DNA of 16,498 nucleotides, taken from a virus. Lineage: Duplodnaviria; Heunggongvirae; Uroviricota; Caudoviricetes. Below are positions 1-16,498 of this stretch, in pieces (position 1 is the first letter of the stretch; each line of letters opens with the position of its first letter). The stretch is from the IMG/VR virus record IMGVR_UViG_2728369591_000008, positions 1 through 16,498 of that record; one strand, given 5' to 3'. The notes under the pieces were generated by a model. It was not told the DNA's origin. It searched no databases and was given only the letters and a program-made list of their open reading frames with translations. The position numbers and the translations under genes were made by a program.

Positions 1-756
1 TTGAGTGCGGGACGCCTGAATAAAAAATCTCTGGGTATCGTGATGTTGTTATCGGTTGGACTGCTTTTGGCGGGCTGTTCGGGTAGCAAATCATCCGATA
101 CAGGAACGTATTCCGGCTCCGTTTACACCGTGAAACGGGGGGATACGCTATATCGTATTTCGCGCACCACGGGAACCAGCGTAAAAGAACTGGCGCGACT
201 GAACGGCATTTCCCCCCCTTACACCATTGAAGTTGGTCAGAAACTAAAACTGGGTGGGGCGAAAAGTAGCAGTAGTACACGTAAATCAACCGCCAAATCA
301 ACGACCAAAACCGCATCGGTTACACCGTCATCAGCGGTACCGAAATCTTCCTGGCCGCCAGTAGGGCAACGTTGTTGGTTATGGCCAACGACAGGGAAAG
401 TTATCATGCCGTATTCGACAGCAGATGGCGGCAATAAAGGGATTGATATCTCAGCTCCACGGGGTACACCTATTTACGCCGCGGGTGCAGGAAAGGTGGT
501 GTATGTGGGCAACCAGCTGCGTGGCTACGGTAATCTCATCATGATTAAACACAGTGAAGATTACATTACGGCTTACGCCCATAATGACACGATGCTGGTA
601 AATAATGGGCAAAGCGTGAAGACTGGGCAAAAAATCGCCACTATGGGGAGCACGGATGCGGCATCTGTTCGCCTGCATTTCCAGATTCGTTACCGTGCAA
701 CGGCAATTGATCCGCTACGTTACTTGCCGCCGCAGGGCAGCAAGCCAAAATGCTGA
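1..756 (+). CDS. ygeR: LysM-domain / M23-peptidase lipoprotein (YgeR-like), 251 aa, TTG start at window edge
   Basis: N-terminal lipoprotein signal with lipobox LLAGCSG; LysM-like segment (YTVKRGDTLYRISRTTG...LARLNG); C-terminal M23-peptidase-like region (GIDISAPRGTPIYAAGAGKVVYVG...HLHFQIRY). Length and position next to tRNA-Gly(CCC) match my recollection of E. coli ygeR; the symbol is from memory, not a search. Confidence 0.8.
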   Translation: MSAGRLNKKSLGIVMLLSVGLLLAGCSGSKSSDTGTYSGSVYTVKRGDTLYRISRTTGTSVKELARLNGISPPYTIEVGQKLKLGGAKSSSSTRKSTAKSTTKTASVTPSSAVPKSSWPPVGQRCWLWPTTGKVIMPYSTADGGNKGIDISAPRGTPIYAAGAGKVVYVGNQLRGYGNLIMIKHSEDYITAYAHNDTMLVNNGQSVKTGQKIATMGSTDAASVRLHFQIRYRATAIDPLRYLPPQGSKPKC

Positions 757-789
757 TGGCGAATTAATCAGCAGTCAGCAGCGCGGCAC

Positions 790-817
790 TTGCTAAGGAG
801 AGCGTAAGGTTTATAAT
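790..817 (+). promoter_or_regulatory. Candidate sigma70 promoter for tRNA-Gly (-35 TTGCTA 790..795, 16-bp spacer, -10 TATAAT 812..817)
   Basis: Near-consensus hexamers with 16-bp spacing, about 17 bp upstream of the mature tRNA 5' end. Confidence 0.4.
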
Positions 818-834
818 GCCTTACGCATCTCGAA

Positions 835-908
835 GCGGGCGTAGTTCAATGGTAGAACGAGAGCTTCCCAAGCTCTATACGAGGGTTCGATTCCCTTCGC
901 CCGCTCCA
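835..908 (+). tRNA. glyU: tRNA-Gly (anticodon CCC), 74 nt
   Basis: Sequence GCGGGCGTAGTTCAATGGTAGAACGAGAGCTTCCCAAGCTCTATACGAGGGTTCGATTCCCTTCGCCCGCTCCA folds as a cloverleaf: 7-bp acceptor stem GCGGGCG/CGCCCGC, anticodon stem AGAGC/GCTCT with loop TTCCCAA, T-arm GGTTCGATTCC; no encoded CCA. Confidence 0.95.
891..908 (+). repeat. attL core (3' end of tRNA-Gly, TTCCCTTCGCCCGCTCCA)
   Basis: Direct repeat partner at 15406..15422 (TTCCCTTCGCCGCTCCA, 17 of 18 positions with one C deleted). Confidence 0.6.
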
Positions 909-922
909 AACAAACATTTCTC

Positions 923-1043
923 AACGTCTACTAAAGTCCATCAAACCCACGAATATCAAGCCTTCCAGCATTTTCATAGTTTATTAACGTCTACTCACAA
1001 CTACCAGAATCTACACACAGAAGTGTATAGTAATGCGTATAGG
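923..1043 (+). repeat. Candidate integrase arm-type sites in attL (AACGTCTACT at 923..932 and 986..995; GTGTATAGTAATGCGTATAGG at 1023..1043)
   Basis: Short direct repeats between the tRNA end and the int start; the GTGTATAG motif recurs near the other island end (15327..15350). Confidence 0.45.
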
Positions 1044-1071
1044 ACAAAATTTATTTTTTGGAGCTATACAC

Positions 1072-2286
1072 ATGCTGCTTTCAGACCTTGCCATCAGGCG
1101 CGCGAAGCCGAAAGAAAAGGCTTATACACTCAATGACGGTAACGGGCTTTCGTTGCTCATTGAGCCGAACGGTTCGAAAGGGTGGCGACTGCGCTACAGG
1201 TTTGCAGGAAAGCCCAAAATGTTGTCGTTGGGTGTGTACCCTGATGTGTCTCTGTCTGATGCCAGGGCGGCAAGGGATGAGGCTAAAAGGCTTCTTGCTG
1301 GTGGTATAAATCCAAGTGAGGCCAGAAAAGCCCAAAAGCGAGAACAGGCGAGCAAATTTGGCAATACTTTTGAGGGTATCGCTCGCGAATGGTACGAAAA
1401 GCGGATCGACAGGTGGTCATCGTCATACGCCGAGGAAATGATCGAGACGTTTGAAAAAGACGTTTTTCCGTACATTGGCGGTAGGCCGATCGCAGAAATT
1501 AAGCCGATGGAATTGCTGGCGGTTCTTTCCCGTCTTAATGACCGTGGTGCGACTGAAAAATTGCGTAAGGTTCGCCAGCGATGCGGCGAGGTGTTCCGGT
1601 ACGCAATCATCACCGGACGCGCCGAATATAATCCAGCCCCTGACCTGGTGAGCGCATTTGCTCCACATAAAAAAGAGCATTACGCCTATCTGAAGGCCGA
1701 CGAACTGCCGGAATTTTTCCGCGTTTTTAATACGTACACCGGAAGCCAGATCGTCAAACTGGCAATGCGGCTATTAATTCTGACAGGTGTCAGACCCGGG
1801 GAATTACGGCAGGCAGAATGGCAGGAGATCGATTTTGATAATCGTTTGTGGGAAGTGCCTAAAGAACGAATGAAGATGCGCCGTCCGCATTGTGTGCCAT
1901 TACCAGAACAGGCGATAAAAATACTGGAGCAGTTAAAAAACATGACAGGCCAGTATCAGTTTATTTTCCCCGGTCGTATTCACCACAGTAAGCCAATGAG
2001 TGAAATGGCGATGAATGTGCTCATTCGTCGTATCGGCTATGCCGGGCGCGTTACTGGTCATGGATTCCGGCACACCATGAGCACCATTTTGCATGAGCAG
2101 GGCTATAACACCGCGTGGATAGAAACGCAGCTCGCGCATGTCGATAAAAACTCAATTCGTGGCACATACAACCATGCGCAATATCTGGATGGCAGACGCG
2201 AAATGCTCCAGTGGTATGCCGACTATATGGATTCGCTCGAGCATGGCGGAAATGTGGTGCATGGTGAGTTCGGAAAATGCGGGTGA
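1072..2286 (+). CDS. int: Tyrosine recombinase / integrase, P4-like family (404 aa)
   Basis: N-terminus MLLSDLAIRRAKPKEKAYTLNDGNGLSLLIEPNGSKGWRLRYRF is typical of P4-type integrases; C-terminal catalytic motifs HGFRHT and RGTYNHAQY; RBS GGAG 1060..1063 before ATG 1072 (the track's upstream ATG at 1033 has no RBS). Confidence 0.93.
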   Translation: MLLSDLAIRRAKPKEKAYTLNDGNGLSLLIEPNGSKGWRLRYRFAGKPKMLSLGVYPDVSLSDARAARDEAKRLLAGGINPSEARKAQKREQASKFGNTFEGIAREWYEKRIDRWSSSYAEEMIETFEKDVFPYIGGRPIAEIKPMELLAVLSRLNDRGATEKLRKVRQRCGEVFRYAIITGRAEYNPAPDLVSAFAPHKKEHYAYLKADELPEFFRVFNTYTGSQIVKLAMRLLILTGVRPGELRQAEWQEIDFDNRLWEVPKERMKMRRPHCVPLPEQAIKILEQLKNMTGQYQFIFPGRIHHSKPMSEMAMNVLIRRIGYAGRVTGHGFRHTMSTILHEQGYNTAWIETQLAHVDKNSIRGTYNHAQYLDGRREMLQWYADYMDSLEHGGNVVHGEFGKCG

Positions 2287-2414
2287 CTGGTTGAGTATAC
2301 AGTAGTAGACTTTGAGCGACGAAAGAAAAGGCTGTGTCTAGGGTCGCTCCCGAAAATCCGTACACCTCGACGGACTGGTCCAGCCACTACAGTAGAGGAC
2401 GCTGAGGTGTGCGT

Positions 2415-3212
2415 ATGATTGATATTCATGCCGAATTAAACGAATACAAAAAAGATTTTATTTCTTTACGTGAATTTCTTGAGGTCGTGCTTAAGGTCGC
2501 TGGTGATGATTATGATGTTTCAGATGTCATAACTTGGATACTCAGGAGAATAAGCGGAGAACATATCCGCCTGTACACAGTAAATGAATTTAAGCTGTTG
2601 GAATCTTTTTGTAACCCGTATCGGGATGAATTTGATAATGATGTTCTTTATAGAAATCTGAATGCGGTTCGGAAACGTGGTTGTTTACCTGGTGAGAGGG
2701 ATGAAAATGGTTTTCTGGTGTCCGGTTATTGGGAAGATCCCGAATTTGAGAACATTGGATTTATAAGGGGTGAAATTTTCTCAATTTTTCCCGATGTCCT
2801 TGACGCGTTAACGAAGCTGGAAGGCGCTAACCCTTCTGAAAATGACGAGGCACAAGGACGCGATATTGAAAAGAAAGAGTTGCGTACAGAGGATGATTTA
2901 TTATCCCAAATCGCAATGCTGGAAAAAGAAAACGCAGAGTTAAGGGCAAGGATAGAGCAGTTAGAGCAAGAGCGCCCGATACACTTATATAAATACTGGG
3001 ATAAAGACCCATTAGCTAAGGCTATTGAGATTAGAAACAGAGAGTGGGCCAATTACGATCCAGAAAATGATTTTGCCACCAGGGGAAATCAAGAAGCGAT
3101 AACCAGGGAGCTTAAGCAGTGGGGGGCAAGTAATGCACTTGCAACGCTCATAGAGAGGACTGCCTGCCCTATTAACCGAGACAACAGCCAAAAGAACGCA
3201 AAGCCGGATTAA
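2415..3212 (+). CDS. Hypothetical protein with C-terminal coiled coil (265 aa)
   Basis: Long ORF with RBS GAGG 2404..2407 before ATG 2415; heptad-like segment LSQIAMLEKENAELRARIEQLEQER; no domain I recognise. Confidence 0.6.
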   Translation: MIDIHAELNEYKKDFISLREFLEVVLKVAGDDYDVSDVITWILRRISGEHIRLYTVNEFKLLESFCNPYRDEFDNDVLYRNLNAVRKRGCLPGERDENGFLVSGYWEDPEFENIGFIRGEIFSIFPDVLDALTKLEGANPSENDEAQGRDIEKKELRTEDDLLSQIAMLEKENAELRARIEQLEQERPIHLYKYWDKDPLAKAIEIRNREWANYDPENDFATRGNQEAITRELKQWGASNALATLIERTACPINRDNSQKNAKPD

Positions 3213-3227
3213 CGCACCATACCGCAT

Positions 3228-3338
3228 ACCCTGAGGGTGATTTACTGTTACCCTGAGGGTATTTTTTTATCTTCCCCGTCAATTTTACCATCACCCTTAG
3301 GGTAGATTTCCTTCCGGTAACCATTAGGCCTGAGGGTA
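3228..3338 (+). promoter_or_regulatory. Four copies of ACCCTGAGGGT-like motif upstream of alpA (3228..3238, 3250..3260, 3293..3303, 3328..3338)
   Basis: Imperfect repeats of a partly palindromic core CCTGAGGG / CCTTAGGG in a non-coding stretch directly upstream of the AlpA-family gene; candidate regulator-binding sites. Confidence 0.5.
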
Positions 3339-3406
3339 TGAAAATATTCGTTATTTCTGTGCCATGATTACCTCGTCAAATTGAGTAGACGTTATGAGGT
3401 AAATAT

Positions 3407-3604
3407 ATGTCAAATACGCTTATTCGTTTAACAGAAGTTCAGCGTAGAACTGGATATAGCAAGGCATGGATTTATCGCCTTATGGGGCAAGGTAAATTTC
3501 CTGCATCAGTTAAAATTGGCTCGCGAGCTATTGCTTTCGTTGAGAGTGAAATTGACGAGTGGATTAATCAGCGTATTGCGGAATCACGCGGAACAGCTAC
3601 CTGA
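3407..3604 (+). CDS. alpA: AlpA-family phage transcriptional regulator (65 aa)
   Basis: Sequence MSNTLIRLTEVQRRTGYSKAWIYRLMGQGKFPASVKIGSRAIAFVESEIDEWI matches the AlpA/excisionase-like HTH family pattern; RBS GAGG 3396..3399. Confidence 0.85.
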   Translation: MSNTLIRLTEVQRRTGYSKAWIYRLMGQGKFPASVKIGSRAIAFVESEIDEWINQRIAESRGTAT

Positions 3605-3681
3605 TTAAATGGCTACGGGGCTATTGCCCCCAGCTATCCACCAGCAAATAAAAGTAACTTAATTCGATAGCAGGAGTTTTT

Positions 3682-4482
3682 ATGAAATTTCCAAAAACGC
3701 CCGTACAGGGGCGGGGCTTCGTTCGGCCTGAAAACCAGAATCTGCAAAATTTCGGCGAAATTATCCCGATTATTTCCGGCGTTATTGGCGGGAGTGAAAC
3801 CACTATTGTTAGCGCCAGAGCGTTACATAAGGCGTTAGGTGTAGGGCGCGTTTTCCGTTCGTGGATCAAGGGGCGCATTGAAGAATACGGGTTCACGGAA
3901 GGCGTGGATTATGAGGTTGTTGAATATTTGAGCCGACCCGATCCGGTGAGCGCAAAATCTCGCCAGCAAACCGCTCTTGAGTACATCATCACAGTGAACA
4001 TGGCGAAAGAACTGGCGATGGTCGAACGTACCGAACAGGGCCGCGCCGTTCGCCAGTACTTTATCAAATGCGAGGAGGAGCTACACAAGGTAGCGCCAGT
4101 GCGTTCCGCAGCATTACGCCGGGAACTGAAAGCCCGTATCACCGTTGCCAGCTACTTTAAGCCAATGTGTGCCGCGCTGGAGGCGTACCGGGCTGAACTG
4201 GGTAAAAACACGTTCCAGCACCACTACACCACGGAAGCCAATATGCTGGCGCGTATCGTGCTGGGTGGCATGACTGCAAAACAGTGGGCGCAGGCGAACG
4301 GCATCACAGGCGAACCACGCGACCACATGAGCACGTTGCAGCTTGAGCACCTTTCTTACCTTGAGCAGAGCAATATCACGCTGATTGAGTTAGGCCAGGG
4401 CTACCACCAGCGGAAAGCTGAATTAATTCGTCTTTCGCAGCGTTGGTTAGCCCGTCGCATGGAGGAAAACAGCCATGTGTAA
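3682..4482 (+). CDS. Phage antirepressor-like protein (AntA/Rha-type N-terminal domain), 266 aa
   Basis: N-terminal region SARALHKALGVGRVFRSWIKGRIEEYGFTEGVDYEV resembles the AntA/AntB-Rha antirepressor fold family; RBS AGGA 3672..3675. Confidence 0.65.
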   Translation: MKFPKTPVQGRGFVRPENQNLQNFGEIIPIISGVIGGSETTIVSARALHKALGVGRVFRSWIKGRIEEYGFTEGVDYEVVEYLSRPDPVSAKSRQQTALEYIITVNMAKELAMVERTEQGRAVRQYFIKCEEELHKVAPVRSAALRRELKARITVASYFKPMCAALEAYRAELGKNTFQHHYTTEANMLARIVLGGMTAKQWAQANGITGEPRDHMSTLQLEHLSYLEQSNITLIELGQGYHQRKAELIRLSQRWLARRMEENSHV

Positions 4483-4752
4483 CGCTCTGACCGTTACAAA
4501 AAGAGAAAGCGCCCCGTTGCCGGAGCGCCTTTGTGAACGAATAGCCTACTGCGCCATATTGCTTACTGTCTACGAGGCAGATTATAGCGTTGTGGTCGCA
4601 CAGAGTGAAGGCGCTGATCACCGTTACTACAGCACGCCAGAAATGCAGAATATTTTGCTGCAAAATGTCGTTGGTCACGCTGTCCGGAAAGCAAAAAATT
4701 TTGCTGGTGGCGCGACTGATGCGATTTTTTCTGGTCGCCCGGTGCTGATCAA

Positions 4753-5055
4753 CTACTCCTGTTCTTTGGCCTTGCGGCGCTGGAGTTCTTCACGCGCGAC
4801 GGTGACGAGTTGCCCGATCTCCTCGGCAGCTTTGACACCGATTTTTTCCACCTGCGCCAGTGCATCGAGCGAAGAAACCAGGGGATTTTCTCCTCTTCCT
4901 TCTGCCTGGCGGCGAGCGATCTCACCGCGCATGGCGGTTACTATGAATCCGGCGTTGCTTTCGCCGTCCAGTTTTACGGATTCCATGCCCTCCATAACAT
5001 CGTGGGGAACCCTGATCGTTGTCATTTGCGATTTTGCATTTTTGTATACAGACAT
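4753..5055 (-). CDS. Putative ribbon-helix-helix (CopG/Arc-like) repressor, 100 aa, divergent from the replication operon
   Basis: N-terminal MTTIRVPHDVMEGME fits the RHH beta-strand plus helix pattern; the gene starts next to an operator-like repeat array; the plus-strand frame over this interval translates to Ser/Pro/Ala-rich antisense-looking sequence. Confidence 0.6.
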   Translation of the reverse strand: MSVYKNAKSQMTTIRVPHDVMEGMESVKLDGESNAGFIVTAMRGEIARRQAEGRGENPLVSSLDALAQVEKIGVKAAEEIGQLVTVAREELQRRKAKEQE

Positions 5056-5176
5056 AGTTAATCACCAATTTGTTATGTGTATATCACTATACACAAAAGT
5101 GAGATATAAAAACACTTGCAATGTATATCACCACAATATAATGTGTATCTCACATGGGGGTCGCTATGTATCTCAC
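5043..5176. promoter_or_regulatory. Divergent promoter/operator region: 20-bp palindrome TGTGTATATCACTATACACA (5076..5095) plus TGTAT(A/C)TCAC repeats at 5122..5131, 5144..5153, 5167..5176 and inverted copy 5099..5107; candidate rightward promoter -35 TTGCAA 5116..5121, -10 TATAAT 5137..5142
   Basis: Direct and inverted repeats of one 10-mer, spaced about 22 bp apart, overlapping the candidate -35/-10 hexamers between the divergent RHH gene and the plus-strand operon. Confidence 0.6.
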
Positions 5177-5263
5177 AATGAGCGATTCATAAAAACGACG
5201 AAACCCGGCAGTGCGCGAACACTAACCGGGCTTCTAACCAAACCGTTAAATGAGGTAACGATT

Positions 5264-5629
5264 ATGGCTGGAACACAGCATACCCAAACTCACCCTAAAT
5301 TTATATACACCTTCCTGGCGGTGCACCGTGATTGCATGGCTGACGGTAAAAACACTGTACACGTAGCCGCTGATACGCTGGTGGATGCCTGCGAGATGCT
5401 CAATGACATGGGCTATATCTCGGCAACATGGAAAGGGCGCGAAGAAAACACGCTGTTTATTCAGAAATGCGAGAACAATTTTATCTGGCGTTTTATCGCC
5501 CTGAGCACGGCACAACCGCGCGTGATTCACATCGAGGCCACCAGCGAACAGGAAGCACGCCAGCAATCCCCGGCTGGCTGCGTGATGGTATTCGCCGCCC
5601 GTATTCGCCAGGAGGTGGAACATGTGTAA
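5264..5629 (+). CDS. Hypothetical protein (121 aa), first gene of the coupled operon
   Basis: RBS GAGG 5252..5255 before ATG 5264; overlaps the start of the next ORF. Confidence 0.6.
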   Translation: MAGTQHTQTHPKFIYTFLAVHRDCMADGKNTVHVAADTLVDACEMLNDMGYISATWKGREENTLFIQKCENNFIWRFIALSTAQPRVIHIEATSEQEARQQSPAGCVMVFAARIRQEVEHV

Positions 5630-5846
5630 TGCAACATGGCCTGATGCAGCGGTAGACGCTATCAAAACGCTGATGGATTCACTTGTTGAGATTTCTGCTA
5701 TCGCTGGTGTGGCGCATAAACACGCAGCCAGAGAATCAGAATGCATCTCCCATTATTTAGCATTTGTGCAGCTAAAAGCCGATCAGGCACTGGATAAGGC
5801 CGGAAAAATTATCATGGCTGATGTGCAGGAGGTGCACCATGCATAA
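5622..5846 (+). CDS. Hypothetical protein (74 aa)
   Basis: Start overlaps the stop of the upstream gene (ATGTGTAA); same-strand coupled series. Confidence 0.5.
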   Translation: MCNATWPDAAVDAIKTLMDSLVEISAIAGVAHKHAARESECISHYLAFVQLKADQALDKAGKIIMADVQEVHHA

Positions 5847-6204
5847 CCTGTCAATTTCTGACCTTAACAGCATTCAGTTTGACGAGAAATTTACCGGGCA
5901 GTTGCTGGTCAATGTGGAGAACGGGCGCATAGTGCGTAATTACCACCTGCCGGATGGTGCAATTGCCGGAAGCGTTGAAGCATTGCTGGAACTGGCGGAA
6001 CGTGCGCGACTGATTAAGCCGTCAACGAGCCATCACGATGATGATCTGCATTTTACCGGGCGTATGGTGAGTCACTACGAAAACGGCGTTGAAGTATCCC
6101 GCGAACGGCTGCGTGATGATTGCTGTTTCGGCACACTGCCGGAATTTATCGAGTTGCTGACCAGTTGCGGTTATCAGGTCATTCAGGGGGGTAAACATGC
6201 GTGA
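5839..6204 (+). CDS. Hypothetical protein (121 aa)
   Basis: RBS AGGAGG 5826..5831 before ATG 5839; overlaps the upstream stop. Confidence 0.55.
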   Translation: MHNLSISDLNSIQFDEKFTGQLLVNVENGRIVRNYHLPDGAIAGSVEALLELAERARLIKPSTSHHDDDLHFTGRMVSHYENGVEVSRERLRDDCCFGTLPEFIELLTSCGYQVIQGGKHA

Positions 6205-6430
6205 TGATCGTTTTAATTCCCTGAAACGGGAATTTGATGGCGCACCGGAAGATGCAGCGGGCGCATTGTTGAGCGTTGCTGACATGATGAAAGCTGCATA
6301 TTTTCTTATCAATACCAGTGGCTACAAGTCAGAGGGTGAAATGATTCTTAGTATTGCGTCGGACTATGCGGAATATGTGGCAGAGACGCGTTACAGAAGA
6401 AAATCTCTGGAGGATGTAAGCCATGCATAA
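6197..6430 (+). CDS. Hypothetical protein (77 aa)
   Basis: G-rich RBS before ATG 6197; ATGCGTGA overlap with the upstream stop. Confidence 0.5.
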   Translation: MRDDRFNSLKREFDGAPEDAAGALLSVADMMKAAYFLINTSGYKSEGEMILSIASDYAEYVAETRYRRKSLEDVSHA

Positions 6431-6623
6431 TCATGAAGCGCATGTACCCGTAGTGCTTAATGTGCCAGATGATTTCACCGGACGCGTGCTGGTTTACCTG
6501 GATAAAGGGAAAGTGAAATCACAATGCCGACTGAAAAGTAATGAGATTGTTGGTTCTCCTGAATTTTTTTCTGAACTTTGTATTCGTGCGGAAATAAAAC
6601 CGGAACTGCTGACAGGAAAATAA
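6423..6623 (+). CDS. Hypothetical protein (66 aa)
   Basis: ATG 6423 overlaps the upstream stop; coupled series. Confidence 0.45.
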   Translation: MHNHEAHVPVVLNVPDDFTGRVLVYLDKGKVKSQCRLKSNEIVGSPEFFSELCIRAEIKPELLTGK

Positions 6624-6627
6624 AACC

Positions 6628-6918
6628 ATGAAAAAGAAAAATTCTGGCTTTACTGCCAGCGGCCTCTCTCGGCCTGAAATCCGCCCCGGTGATATTTTCC
6701 GGGACACCAGACGCGGGGGACGGGTGGTTATTCGTCACGTTACGCCAGGCAATATCACCTACCGCCGTGAGGCTTACGAATATGACTGCGTAATGCCGCG
6801 CCGTCAGTTTGAGCGTGATTTTATTCTGGTGGAAAACAAACAACAGGCAGTGGCGAGACGTGCAGCCACGAATATTAAAAAAATCCGGGCAATGTTGGTT
6901 GCGGGAGGTAAGAAGTGA
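6628..6918 (+). CDS. Hypothetical protein (96 aa)
   Basis: RBS AGGAAA before ATG 6628; its stop overlaps the GTG start of the primase/helicase gene. Confidence 0.55.
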   Translation: MKKKNSGFTASGLSRPEIRPGDIFRDTRRGGRVVIRHVTPGNITYRREAYEYDCVMPRRQFERDFILVENKQQAVARRAATNIKKIRAMLVAGGKK

Positions 6919-8720
6919 AAAACGCACCGAATTTAAAATATCAGCCGAAGGATAAATTCACCGAGGTAATCATTTTTGCCGGGACGGATGCTTACGCCCA
7001 TGCTCAACACTGGATTGAAAGCGAAGGACGAAAACACGGCGATAACGTGCCTCCTGTTTACCTGGGGCCAAAGCAACTGGCAGACCTGGCGAATATCCGC
7101 ATTGTCGACGATGAACGCCGCTTTGCGCGTGTCTATCTCGCGGGGGAGATAGAGCCAATCCAGATCAATGCTATTGCTGAAAAGCTGGCGCTGGCTGGTG
7201 TACAGGACGCGAAATTATACAAAGGTATCACCGACCGGGAGCCGGAAAACTGGCGCGACTACCTGCAACGGATCCGCGAACAGGCAGAGAGTGGGGAAGT
7301 TTCAGCGATGAAATTAGCCACAAAAAATATTGACCTATCCAGGCCAGCACTAAATCAGATGGGAGCCAGCCAGAGAGGGGAAGTGTTACTTGAATATTAT
7401 GGAAGAGCACTGGCTATAAATGATGATTCTGATGTAGTTCACCATTACAACGGAATTGTCTGGGTGCCTGTATCTGATAAGGAACTCCAGCGGTCTATGG
7501 CGAAGATTTTTATTGATGCTGGAATCAGTTATTCGCAAAACGCCATTAAATTTGCCGTAGACACAATGAAATTGAGCCTGCCTGTTATGGGCGGGGCAGG
7601 CAGGAATCTTATTGGATTCAGTAACGGGGTATTTGATACCCGGACGGGAAATTTTCGGGAGCATAACAAAAATGACTGGTTGTTAAATGCCAGTGAATTA
7701 CCGTTCAGCCCACCAGCAGAGGGGGAAACGCTGGCAACACATGCGCCGAATTTCTGGAAGTGGCTGCGTCGTTCGGTGGCAGATAATGATCGTAAAGCTG
7801 ATCGCGTACTGGCGGCATTATTCATGGTACTGGCGAACCGGTACGACTGGCAGTTATTCCTTGAGGTAACAGGCCCAGGCGGAAGCGGTAAAAGTGTGAT
7901 GGCTGAGATTTGTACCATGCTGGCGGGTAAGGCCAACACAGTATCGGCAAGCATGAAGGCTCTGGAAGACGCAAGGGAACGCGCGTTAGTAGTTGGCTTT
8001 TCGCTGATTATCATGCCGGATATGACTCGCTACGCTGGCGATGGTGCAGGAATTAAGGCAATTACTGGCGGCGACAAGGTGGCAATTGATCCGAAACATA
8101 AAGCCCCCTACTCCACACGTATTCCGGCAGTAGTGCTTGCGGTAAACAATAACGCCATGTCATTCAGTGACCGAAGCGGGGGGATCTCGCGTCGTAGGGT
8201 GATATTTAATTTCTCTGAGGTCGTACCGGAGAACGAACGCGATCCCATGCTGGCGGAAAAGATAGAAGGCGAACTGGCGGTAGTGATTCGCCATTTGCTA
8301 ACACGATTTACCGACCAGGACGAAGCTAAAAGACTACTTTATGAGCAGCAAAAATCAGAAGAAGCGCTGTTGATAAAGCGCGAAGGTGATTCACTGGTGG
8401 ACTTTTGCGGCTATCTGATGTCGTTGGTTAAATGTGAAGGAATGATGGTGGGCAATGCGGAAATAGTGCCATTTAGCCCGAGGCGATACCTGTATCATGC
8501 TTATTTAGCCTATATGTCAGCGCATGGCCTGGGAAAACCAGTATCACTGACACGCTTTGGTACTGATATGCCAGGAGCTATGGCGGAATACGGAAAGGAG
8601 TATAAGCGGGCTAAATGCACTAAAGGCCCGGATAAAGGGCGAGTGATAACAAATGTTCTGTTAGATGATGATGCTGATGGCTGGTTGCCAGCAGCTACAG
8701 GGATTAACGACAGAACATAA
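6915..8720 (+). CDS. Replication primase/helicase, P4-alpha / D5-type (Walker A GPGGSGKS), 601 aa, GTG start
   Basis: Walker A motif GPGGSGKS and surrounding P4-family primase C-terminal/helicase-like region; RBS GGGAGG 6903..6908 before GTG 6915; immediately followed by an iteron array. Confidence 0.88.
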   Translation: MKNAPNLKYQPKDKFTEVIIFAGTDAYAHAQHWIESEGRKHGDNVPPVYLGPKQLADLANIRIVDDERRFARVYLAGEIEPIQINAIAEKLALAGVQDAKLYKGITDREPENWRDYLQRIREQAESGEVSAMKLATKNIDLSRPALNQMGASQRGEVLLEYYGRALAINDDSDVVHHYNGIVWVPVSDKELQRSMAKIFIDAGISYSQNAIKFAVDTMKLSLPVMGGAGRNLIGFSNGVFDTRTGNFREHNKNDWLLNASELPFSPPAEGETLATHAPNFWKWLRRSVADNDRKADRVLAALFMVLANRYDWQLFLEVTGPGGSGKSVMAEICTMLAGKANTVSASMKALEDARERALVVGFSLIIMPDMTRYAGDGAGIKAITGGDKVAIDPKHKAPYSTRIPAVVLAVNNNAMSFSDRSGGISRRRVIFNFSEVVPENERDPMLAEKIEGELAVVIRHLLTRFTDQDEAKRLLYEQQKSEEALLIKREGDSLVDFCGYLMSLVKCEGMMVGNAEIVPFSPRRYLYHAYLAYMSAHGLGKPVSLTRFGTDMPGAMAEYGKEYKRAKCTKGPDKGRVITNVLLDDDADGWLPAATGINDRT

Positions 8721-8747
8721 TACGAAATTTATAAGCTGAAACGTAAA

Positions 8748-16159: not shown

Positions 16160-16498
16160 TTACTTCTTAATATCGCCAGTGCATTGATATTCGATAGTCA
16201 CAAGTGTTTGCATACAACCAGATGAAGAAGGTTGTGAACATTGAGAAGTGAATCCACCAAAAGGCTCGGCTCCTGAATATCCCCAAGCGGCACAACGCGC
16301 TTTGGCTGCATTCATGCCTTGTTGTGGATCTACAACAGGACTTTCAAACATACCGTAAGAATAACTCATCCTAACTGTGCCGTCTGATTTGCTTCCACCA
16401 GTTGGAACGAGTTGTTTTTTTGTTGCACATCCAGAAATAATCAATGTTGGGTAATGACTCCAACTTATTGATAGTGTTTTATGTTCAGATAATGCCCG
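16160..16498 (-). CDS. Putative lipoprotein, 5'-truncated by the window end
   Basis: Reading frame is open to the window edge upstream of the track's TTG; lipobox-like IISGCATKK; Gly/Ser-rich mature region with four Cys. Confidence 0.5.
   Translation of the reverse strand, partial: RALSEHKTLSISWSHYPTLIISGCATKKQLVPTGGSKSDGTVRMSYSYGMFESPVVDPQQGMNAAKARCAAWGYSGAEPFGGFTSQCSQPSSSGCMQTLVTIEYQCTGDIKK

Follow-up and report, generated by a model that had tools for sequence, protein, structure and literature searches.

Conserved palindromes upstream of alpA in an Escherichia coli PICI-like satellite: a candidate operator array of the protein encoded between int and alpA

Which protein reads the palindromic repeats that precede alpA in a satellite of Escherichia coli, and do these repeats control the gene behind them? 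The DNA analysed here (the window: 16,498 nt, positions 1 to 16,498 of the IMG/VR virus record IMGVR_UViG_2728369591_000008) is an E. coli capsid-forming PICI-like satellite integrated at tRNA-Gly. Beyond the tRNA gene, the satellite genes from int to alpA and onward share one orientation, and their order is that of Gram-negative PICIs of the capsid-forming type (Table 1); the gene at 10053-11195, taken for capsid-like, remained without a family match. AlpA is the master activator of Gram-negative PICIs and stimulates its own promoter (PMC6092414, PMC11773190; layout also in bioRxiv 2022.09.08.507074), and the transcription of alpA is the known decision point of these elements (PMC6092414). 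Helper phages turn it on via an unidentified factor (PMC6092414, PMC11773190), and published work describes neither a repressor for Gram-negative PICIs nor the identity of the helper-phage trigger (PMC6092414). Among the papers covered, our literature search found no described operators at alpA promoters and no Gram-negative PICI repressor.

Table 1. Coordinates of the satellite genes, repeat sites and predicted promoter elements in the window
Feature	Position	Strand	Remarks
tRNA-Gly(CCC)	835-908		attachment end of the satellite
P4-type integrase gene (int)	1033-2286		
265-aa gene, unannotated	2415..3212	+	between int and alpA; candidate binder
Coding region of the conserved C-terminal domain	2970..3179	+	domain presence predicts the motif array
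Site 1, ACCCTGAGGGT	3228..3238	.	perfect 5-N-5 palindrome; centre at about -142 from the predicted TSS; counterpart in relatives at -179 from the ATG
Site 2, ACCCTGAGGGT	3250..3260	.	perfect palindrome, followed by T7; centre at about -120; in relatives at -157 from the ATG
Site 3 with extra upstream half-site, ACCAT-C-ACCCT-T-AGGGT	3287..3303	.	palindrome centre at about -77
33-bp unit with site 3	3287..3319	.	single copy in the window
18-bp imperfect palindrome, ACCATTAGG/CCTGAGGGT	3320..3337	.	centre at about -46; abuts the -35 region
Predicted extended -10, TGcCATGAT	3360..3368	+	alpA promoter; predicted from conservation
Conserved alpA 5' UTR	3375..3406	+	Shine-Dalgarno GAGG at 3396-3399
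alpA	3407..3604	+	65 aa, Phage_AlpA/HTH_17; master activator gene of Gram-negative PICIs; regulated target
AntA-family gene	after alpA		
D5-type primase-helicase gene	6915-8720		
ProQ/FinO and PerC genes, then more unannotated genes	downstream of the primase-helicase gene		

The gap between the stop of the upstream ORF (3212) and the ATG of alpA (3407) has the 194 bp given for it in the earlier note, and contains three perfect ACCCTNAGGGT palindromes of the 5-N-5 type, starting at 3228, 3250 and 3293, all inside 76 bp. When up to one mismatch was allowed, the whole 16.5-kb window yielded a single additional match, at 13383, while 0.30 matches were expected by chance and a count of four was reached in none of the 200 shuffles. 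The same note had counted four copies of an 11-mer with spacings of about 22, 43 and 35 bp. This description holds for the three short palindromes; the fourth copy, GGCCTGAGGGT at 3327-3337, is degenerate, with two mismatches which are both located in its left half, and is better read as the right arm of the 18-bp palindrome, that is, of a longer site of different design. The start-to-start spacings of the four copies are 22, 43 and 34, leaving the first two as claimed and correcting the third; the last copy ends at 3337 and not at 3338. Three perfect sites and one degenerate copy or long palindrome inside 110 bp upstream of alpA amount to a promoter clustering beyond chance. The longer palindrome is perfect in the related loci L092 and L048 (ACCATTAGGCCTAATGGT) and nearly so in L024 and L084 (ACCCTCATGCCTGAGGGT).

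The sites are also regularly phased: their centre-to-centre distances in the window are 22, 43 and 30.5 bp, close to two, four and three helical turns, respectively. The ACCCT units of the array are used both directly (ACCCTtACCCT) and inverted (ACCCTnAGGGT) in a 6-bp register, and the extra half-site of site 3 precedes its palindrome in the same orientation. The lone one-mismatch copy outside the array, AGCCTAAGGGT at 13383-13393, lies upstream of a DUF4747 gene, and sites of this kind are about as frequent as chance predicts (8 outside arrays in 333 kb, with about 10 expected).

A strict scan of the gap for two-hexamer sigma-70 promoters found none. Close to the gene, the sequence TGnNATNAT is invariant among diverged relatives and common to islands with unrelated upstream modules, standing 3-4 bp before a conserved leader, CTCGTAAACC...GAGGTAAAT-ATG. 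It looks like an extended -10 element, which would place the transcription start at about 3375. The alpA promoter predicted in this way has a poor -35, and all of the sites are situated upstream of it; none overlaps the predicted -10 element or start, an unusual layout for a repressor.

The conservation of the motif in related islands, proposed earlier as a check, was found, and at fixed positions. In an alignment of 10 diverged intergenic regions the sites stand at -211, -179, -157 and -114 from the alpA ATG and a long palindrome at about -86 to -69, with diverged flanks; the relatives with such fixed distances between sites and alpA come from many Enterobacterales. Site 3 is the best conserved: every relative has it at -113/-114 from the ATG, in many cases as ACCCTtACCCTnAGGGT. 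The centre-to-centre distances in relatives are about 32, 22, 43 and 31.5 bp, again corresponding to about two, three or four helical turns. Among 54 distinct site contexts the ACCCT/AGGGT arms are near-invariant and the central base is free (T16, C15, G14, A9). This strong positional conservation in diverged islands supports the claim that a separate regulatory input operates upstream of alpA.

Within E. coli, the island was present in 148-188 of 5,426 genomes, differing mainly in copy number of the 33-bp unit. A sample of 60 records spread over the 148 that matched had about nine rows with a single copy, about 43 with two and two with three; the unit is single in about 17 records, including O104:H4 and 55989, a tandem double in most E. 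coli relatives and triple in few. This copy-number polymorphism was noted at 3287-3319 in the window and in the same region of L001 and L002. A recurrent 22-bp deletion fuses sites 1 and 2 in some islands. The polymorphic indels of the array measure 33 and 22 bp, and the helical phase is kept.

Pairs of perfect sites within 8-38 bp turned up at 52 loci when 2.9 million viral contigs were scanned; 33 of these loci have the int-gene-alpA order, and their middle protein was only 30-62% identical in many cases. The other 19 loci were tandem repeats or repeat motifs without PICI genes; on contigs with recognisable PICI genes, paired perfect sites occurred only in the int-ORF-alpA setting. In L059 (IMG/VR 3300037313_000197), a large and unrelated phage-like contig of 126 kb, about 21 copies of tgtcaa-N9-11-ACCCTCAGGGTa stand in 14 kb; they look like a repeated promoter or terminator signal that shares the palindrome by coincidence.

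Palindromes of this kind might also act as nucleic acid hairpins, either as intrinsic terminators or attenuators that prevent read-through into alpA, or as some other RNA or single-stranded DNA structure. Sites 1 and 2 were indeed flagged as terminator-like, with the T7 tract behind the second, the long palindromes of relatives change symmetrically on both arms, and the intergenic RNA folds better than its shuffles (z = -3.3), as expected for any repeated palindromes. Individually, however, the hairpins reach only -4 to -5 kcal/mol, no better than shuffled sequences (z of about -0.6 to -1.0), and the 18-bp site of the window does not fold at all. The T-run occurs at site 2 only and is not kept in relatives. 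The stem is constant, without covariation, and no better conserved than the T and A that would form the loop; no Rfam family matched, apart from a sub-threshold chance hit (16 bits against a gathering score of 49). With weak hairpins, no conserved T-run, no covariation and no Rfam family, a terminator or RNA structure was rejected as an explanation, and we leave it very little probability.

AlpA itself was one of the two binders named in the earlier note, and would activate its own promoter from these palindromes. Positive autoregulation is established for AlpA of EcCICFT073 and probable for that of EcCIMP1 (PMC6092414, PMC11773190), and the sites are directly upstream of alpA. The distribution of the sites, however, does not follow the AlpA allele. 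The AlpA proteins of the Kluyvera locus L084 and the Lonsdalea locus L086 are identical (65/65), but their upstream regions contain 10 and 0 ACCCT/AGGGT pentamers, respectively; similarly, AlpA of the window is 97% identical to that of L004/L005 with 7 versus 0 pentamers, AlpA of L069 and L072 is 97% identical with 8 versus 1, and L088 and L086 (97-98% identity) are discordant for the array. Conversely, a very different AlpA-like protein of L140 is encoded behind sites of the same design, and EcCICFT073, in which autoregulation was shown, has 10-bp-phased direct repeats instead. The discordant pairs led to the rejection of AlpA as the binder of the array, and it now appears very unlikely in this role.

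The repeats might furthermore serve replication or recombination, either as iterons of an origin used by the primase-helicase or as arm-type or excisionase sites. The phased repeats adjoin a T-rich stretch and vary in copy number, as iterons do, and both the integrase gene and a gene of an excisionase family are nearby. Against this, the array is retained with primase alleles 46-100% identical and with Int alleles 54-100% identical. The array and the tRNA-Gly attachment end are separated by 2.3 kb, arm sites are not usually palindromic, and the primase gene begins 3.6 kb downstream of the array, while the origins of PICIs are located downstream of pri (PMC10111431). Both functions were rejected because of the position of the array and because it does not co-vary with the pri and int alleles; we regard their probability as very low.

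The second binder named in the earlier note is the product of the ORF preceding the array. The mechanically called ORF begins at a GTG at 2409; the RefSeq relatives and the family alignment favour the ATG at 2415, giving 265 aa. In the protein, a variable alpha/beta domain at the N-terminus (aa 1-137) is followed by a linker, by a long coiled-coil helix (aa 159-186) and, at the C-terminus, by a conserved four-helix domain (aa ~199-250), predicted to be all-helical, with the ending '...IE.VACPI(K/N)R'. Apart from the coiled coil, searches in Pfam, PHROGs, PADLOC, the PDB (by sequence) and BFVD (Foldseek) yielded nothing of use; the structural similarity to DNA-binding folds was weak, and no profile family matched. 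The family is small, with 121 cluster representatives out of 1.84 billion at E <= 1e-3, and has been found in Escherichia, Salmonella, Klebsiella, Yersinia, Pantoea, Kluyvera, Raoultella, Photorhabdus and elsewhere. Its minimal members of 109 aa, made up of only the coiled coil and the C-domain, retain the full array. In E. coli GPEC1366 the upstream gene is named 'bZIP transcription factor' (RefSeq, hit H85), evidently from its leucine zipper. One sequence (P0074), in which a family fragment is fused to a LacI-type ligand-binding domain, is a truncated chimera that probably arose via rearrangement, and was discarded as support for DNA binding.

The association of this protein with the sites was examined in a motif-blind sample of 80 loci collected via AlpA alone with one genome per species, which gave 76 distinct loci. 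The ORF upstream of alpA was scored with an HMM of the C-terminal domain, and the 320 nt before alpA were scored for sites with up to one mismatch. Sites were present in 6 of the 8 domain-positive loci, the only ones of this kind in the sample, and in 1 of the 68 domain-negative loci (Fisher p = 9e-7). The single domain-negative locus with sites had a decayed or truncated ORF still ending in VACPIKR, and the two domain-positive loci that lacked sites at this threshold had degenerate versions. Since gene and array are physically adjacent, linkage alone could yield much of this co-occurrence. Among 43 domain-positive loci, 147 sites were inside the array and 8 elsewhere, where about 10 were expected by chance; with nearly all sites inside the array and the rest at chance level, the protein would have a single target region.

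Divergence of the domain was accompanied by changes in the half-sites. A distant family member in L147 goes together with variant half-sites, ACCGTGAGGGT, and the related 'GRR' C-terminal class with GGTGG/CCACC repeats instead of the ACCCT type. In L140, the locus with the very different AlpA-like gene, another distant member of the family is associated with sites of the same design, ACTATNATAGT. Of the two binders considered in the earlier note, AlpA is therefore dropped because of the discordant allele pairs, and co-occurrence together with site architecture, both read from sequence, points to the coiled-coil protein as the candidate.

Other classes of genes found between int and alpA have duplicated palindromes of their own: ACCGCAATTGCGGT and ATATAAACCGGTTTATAT in two copies each, TGTAATATTACA, and the GGTGG/CCACC type. 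Loci with such other cassette classes upstream of alpA include L004/L005, L006, L094, L130/L138 and L060/L072/L083. The extended -10-like TGnAATnAT and the leader CTCGTAAACCGCAATAGACGTTACGAGGTAAAT are common to the islands L004, L060, L072, L083 and L086, whose upstream cassettes are unrelated, and the recombination breakpoints between upstream cassettes fall around the transcription start (3360-3406 in the window and the equivalent positions in the same five islands). Islands that differ in their upstream modules become homologous only from about the -10 element and leader onward, from which it follows that the exchanged unit is a cassette consisting of the gene, its operators and the upstream half of the promoter. 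This suggests that interchangeable regulator-plus-operator cassettes before alpA are a general feature.

Alternatively, the sites could be bound by a factor from outside the island, either an inducer of alpA from the helper phage or a host transcription factor, with the upstream gene simply co-travelling. This would accommodate the factor through which helper phages switch on alpA (PMC6092414, PMC11773190), the placement of all sites upstream of a promoter with poor -35, which is a typical activator layout, and the co-occurrence with the neighbouring gene, which could be plain linkage. A phage origin, however, was not apparent from the comparisons made: blastn with the intergenic region matched none of 50,697 phage genomes and no plasmid, and tblastn with the C-domain showed that no phage in the same set encodes it. 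Furthermore, the confinement of paired sites on PICI contigs to the int-ORF-alpA setting, the maintenance of the motif across many genera, whose phages presumably differ, and the joint change of half-site variants and C-domains all speak against an external binder. An outside factor is the serious one among the alternatives, but is judged rather unlikely. No E. coli regulator is known to have this consensus.

The reading that we favour, with moderate confidence, is that the repeats form an operator array of the protein encoded at 2415-3212, which would control the alpA promoter. Owing to its coiled coil the protein is probably dimeric, and its conserved C-terminal helical domain would recognise the ACCCT-type half-sites. 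Dimers may occupy the three short 5-N-5 palindromes and the 18-bp palindrome, which all face roughly the same side of the helix, from about -46 to about -142 of the alpA promoter, and the resulting co-operative complex would set whether the master activator is transcribed. The half-sites are 6 bp apart in the short palindromes and 13 bp apart in the long one, and a rigid dimer could not bind both, so that a flexible linker has to be assumed.

As to the sign of control, we lean slightly to repression, with activation almost equally possible. Under negative control the complex would lock the promoter and stop transcription arriving from int and the upstream gene, until released by a helper-phage product that engages the variable N-terminal domain. 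Repression is favoured by the general habit of mobile-element sensor-regulators, by the need for a self-activating, toxic switch to stay off, and by the fact that no real terminator separates the upstream gene from alpA, so that a protein roadblock would be useful there. Activation is favoured by the position of all sites upstream of a promoter with poor -35, with the proximal dyad at about -46 as in Mu Mor/C. A sensing of the helper phage by the N-terminal domains, as in SaPI Stl, is pure inference by analogy. Such a protein is no general requirement of PICI control, because EcCICFT073 has no gene between int and alpA.

More broadly, and only tentatively, the int-alpA gene might represent a new family of master regulators, which would play the part of SaPI Stl in some of the Gram-negative PICIs: a coiled coil with the C-terminal module would hold the alpA promoter via the ACCCTNAGGGT array, swappable N-terminal domains would sense different helper-phage proteins, and the other int-alpA classes would act likewise. 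If true, this would explain how helper phages switch alpA on. The exchange of a whole cassette of gene, operators and upstream promoter part before an unchanged alpA points to a modular evolution of the induction specificity of satellites. As a cis element the array is of a familiar type; what makes it valuable is the candidate regulator, so far uncharacterised, to which it points at the step where the fate of Gram-negative PICIs is decided. Together with the protein family it offers a concrete and cheap test of the alpA decision in one widespread group of islands, and it gives those who build vehicles for delivery or diagnosis from PICIs a defined cis element to work with.

The window contains a second array, placed by the earlier note at 5043..5176 and correctly regarded there as a different motif: four to five copies of TGTAT(A/C)TCAC(A) at about 5076-5177, in the gap between a small minus-strand gene (YlcI/YnfO-like in relatives) and a plus-strand Icd-like operon, where it probably serves as operator region for the switch of the island's 'dynamic zone'.

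Several known systems resemble the alpA array in part. Omega of pSM19035 and similar repressors read short repeat units in direct and inverted arrays. Common to both are a 5-6-bp unit used directly and inverted at a 6-bp register and multi-copy arrays, co-operative in Omega and possibly so here; Omega, however, is a ribbon-helix-helix protein, whereas the satellite C-domain is predicted to be all-helical. Activators of the Mu Mor/C type are small proteins that dimerise through an N-terminal element and bind DNA with a C-terminal helical domain, and their dyad is located just upstream of a promoter without a good -35, comparable to the long palindrome of the satellite centred near -46. In contrast to Mor/C, the satellite has three to five more phased sites upstream and might be regulated in either direction, and comparison of the proteins revealed no sequence or significant fold relationship.

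The autoregulation of AlpA in EcCICFT073 and EcCIMP1 (PMC6092414, PMC11773190) concerns the same promoter position and the same regulated gene, both being inputs to the alpA decision, but the array of the window does not co-vary with AlpA. The prototype EcCICFT073 (L150, E. coli CFT073), with a different AlpA allele and no intervening gene, has unrelated repeats upstream of alpA, five to six 10-bp-phased direct copies of GA(A/C)ACAAC (7188-7252), and a second short repeat set beside the start codon (7449-7473). The repeats of EcCICFT073 are possible AlpA sites.

Finally, the candidate regulator can be compared with SaPI Stl of Gram-positive PICIs, the operators of which are in the stl-str region. 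Stl has a classical N-terminal HTH and is divergently transcribed, whereas the satellite protein is encoded co-directionally with alpA, has its conserved, unannotated domain at the C-terminus after a coiled coil and would target an activator gene, with repression and phage sensing putative in its case. In both systems the satellite-encoded regulator gene, proven or presumed, adjoins int, the binding sites precede the promoter launching the satellite cycle, and the protein is modular, combining a conserved part, which binds DNA in Stl and may do so here, with a highly variable part, which in Stl senses the helper-phage proteins.
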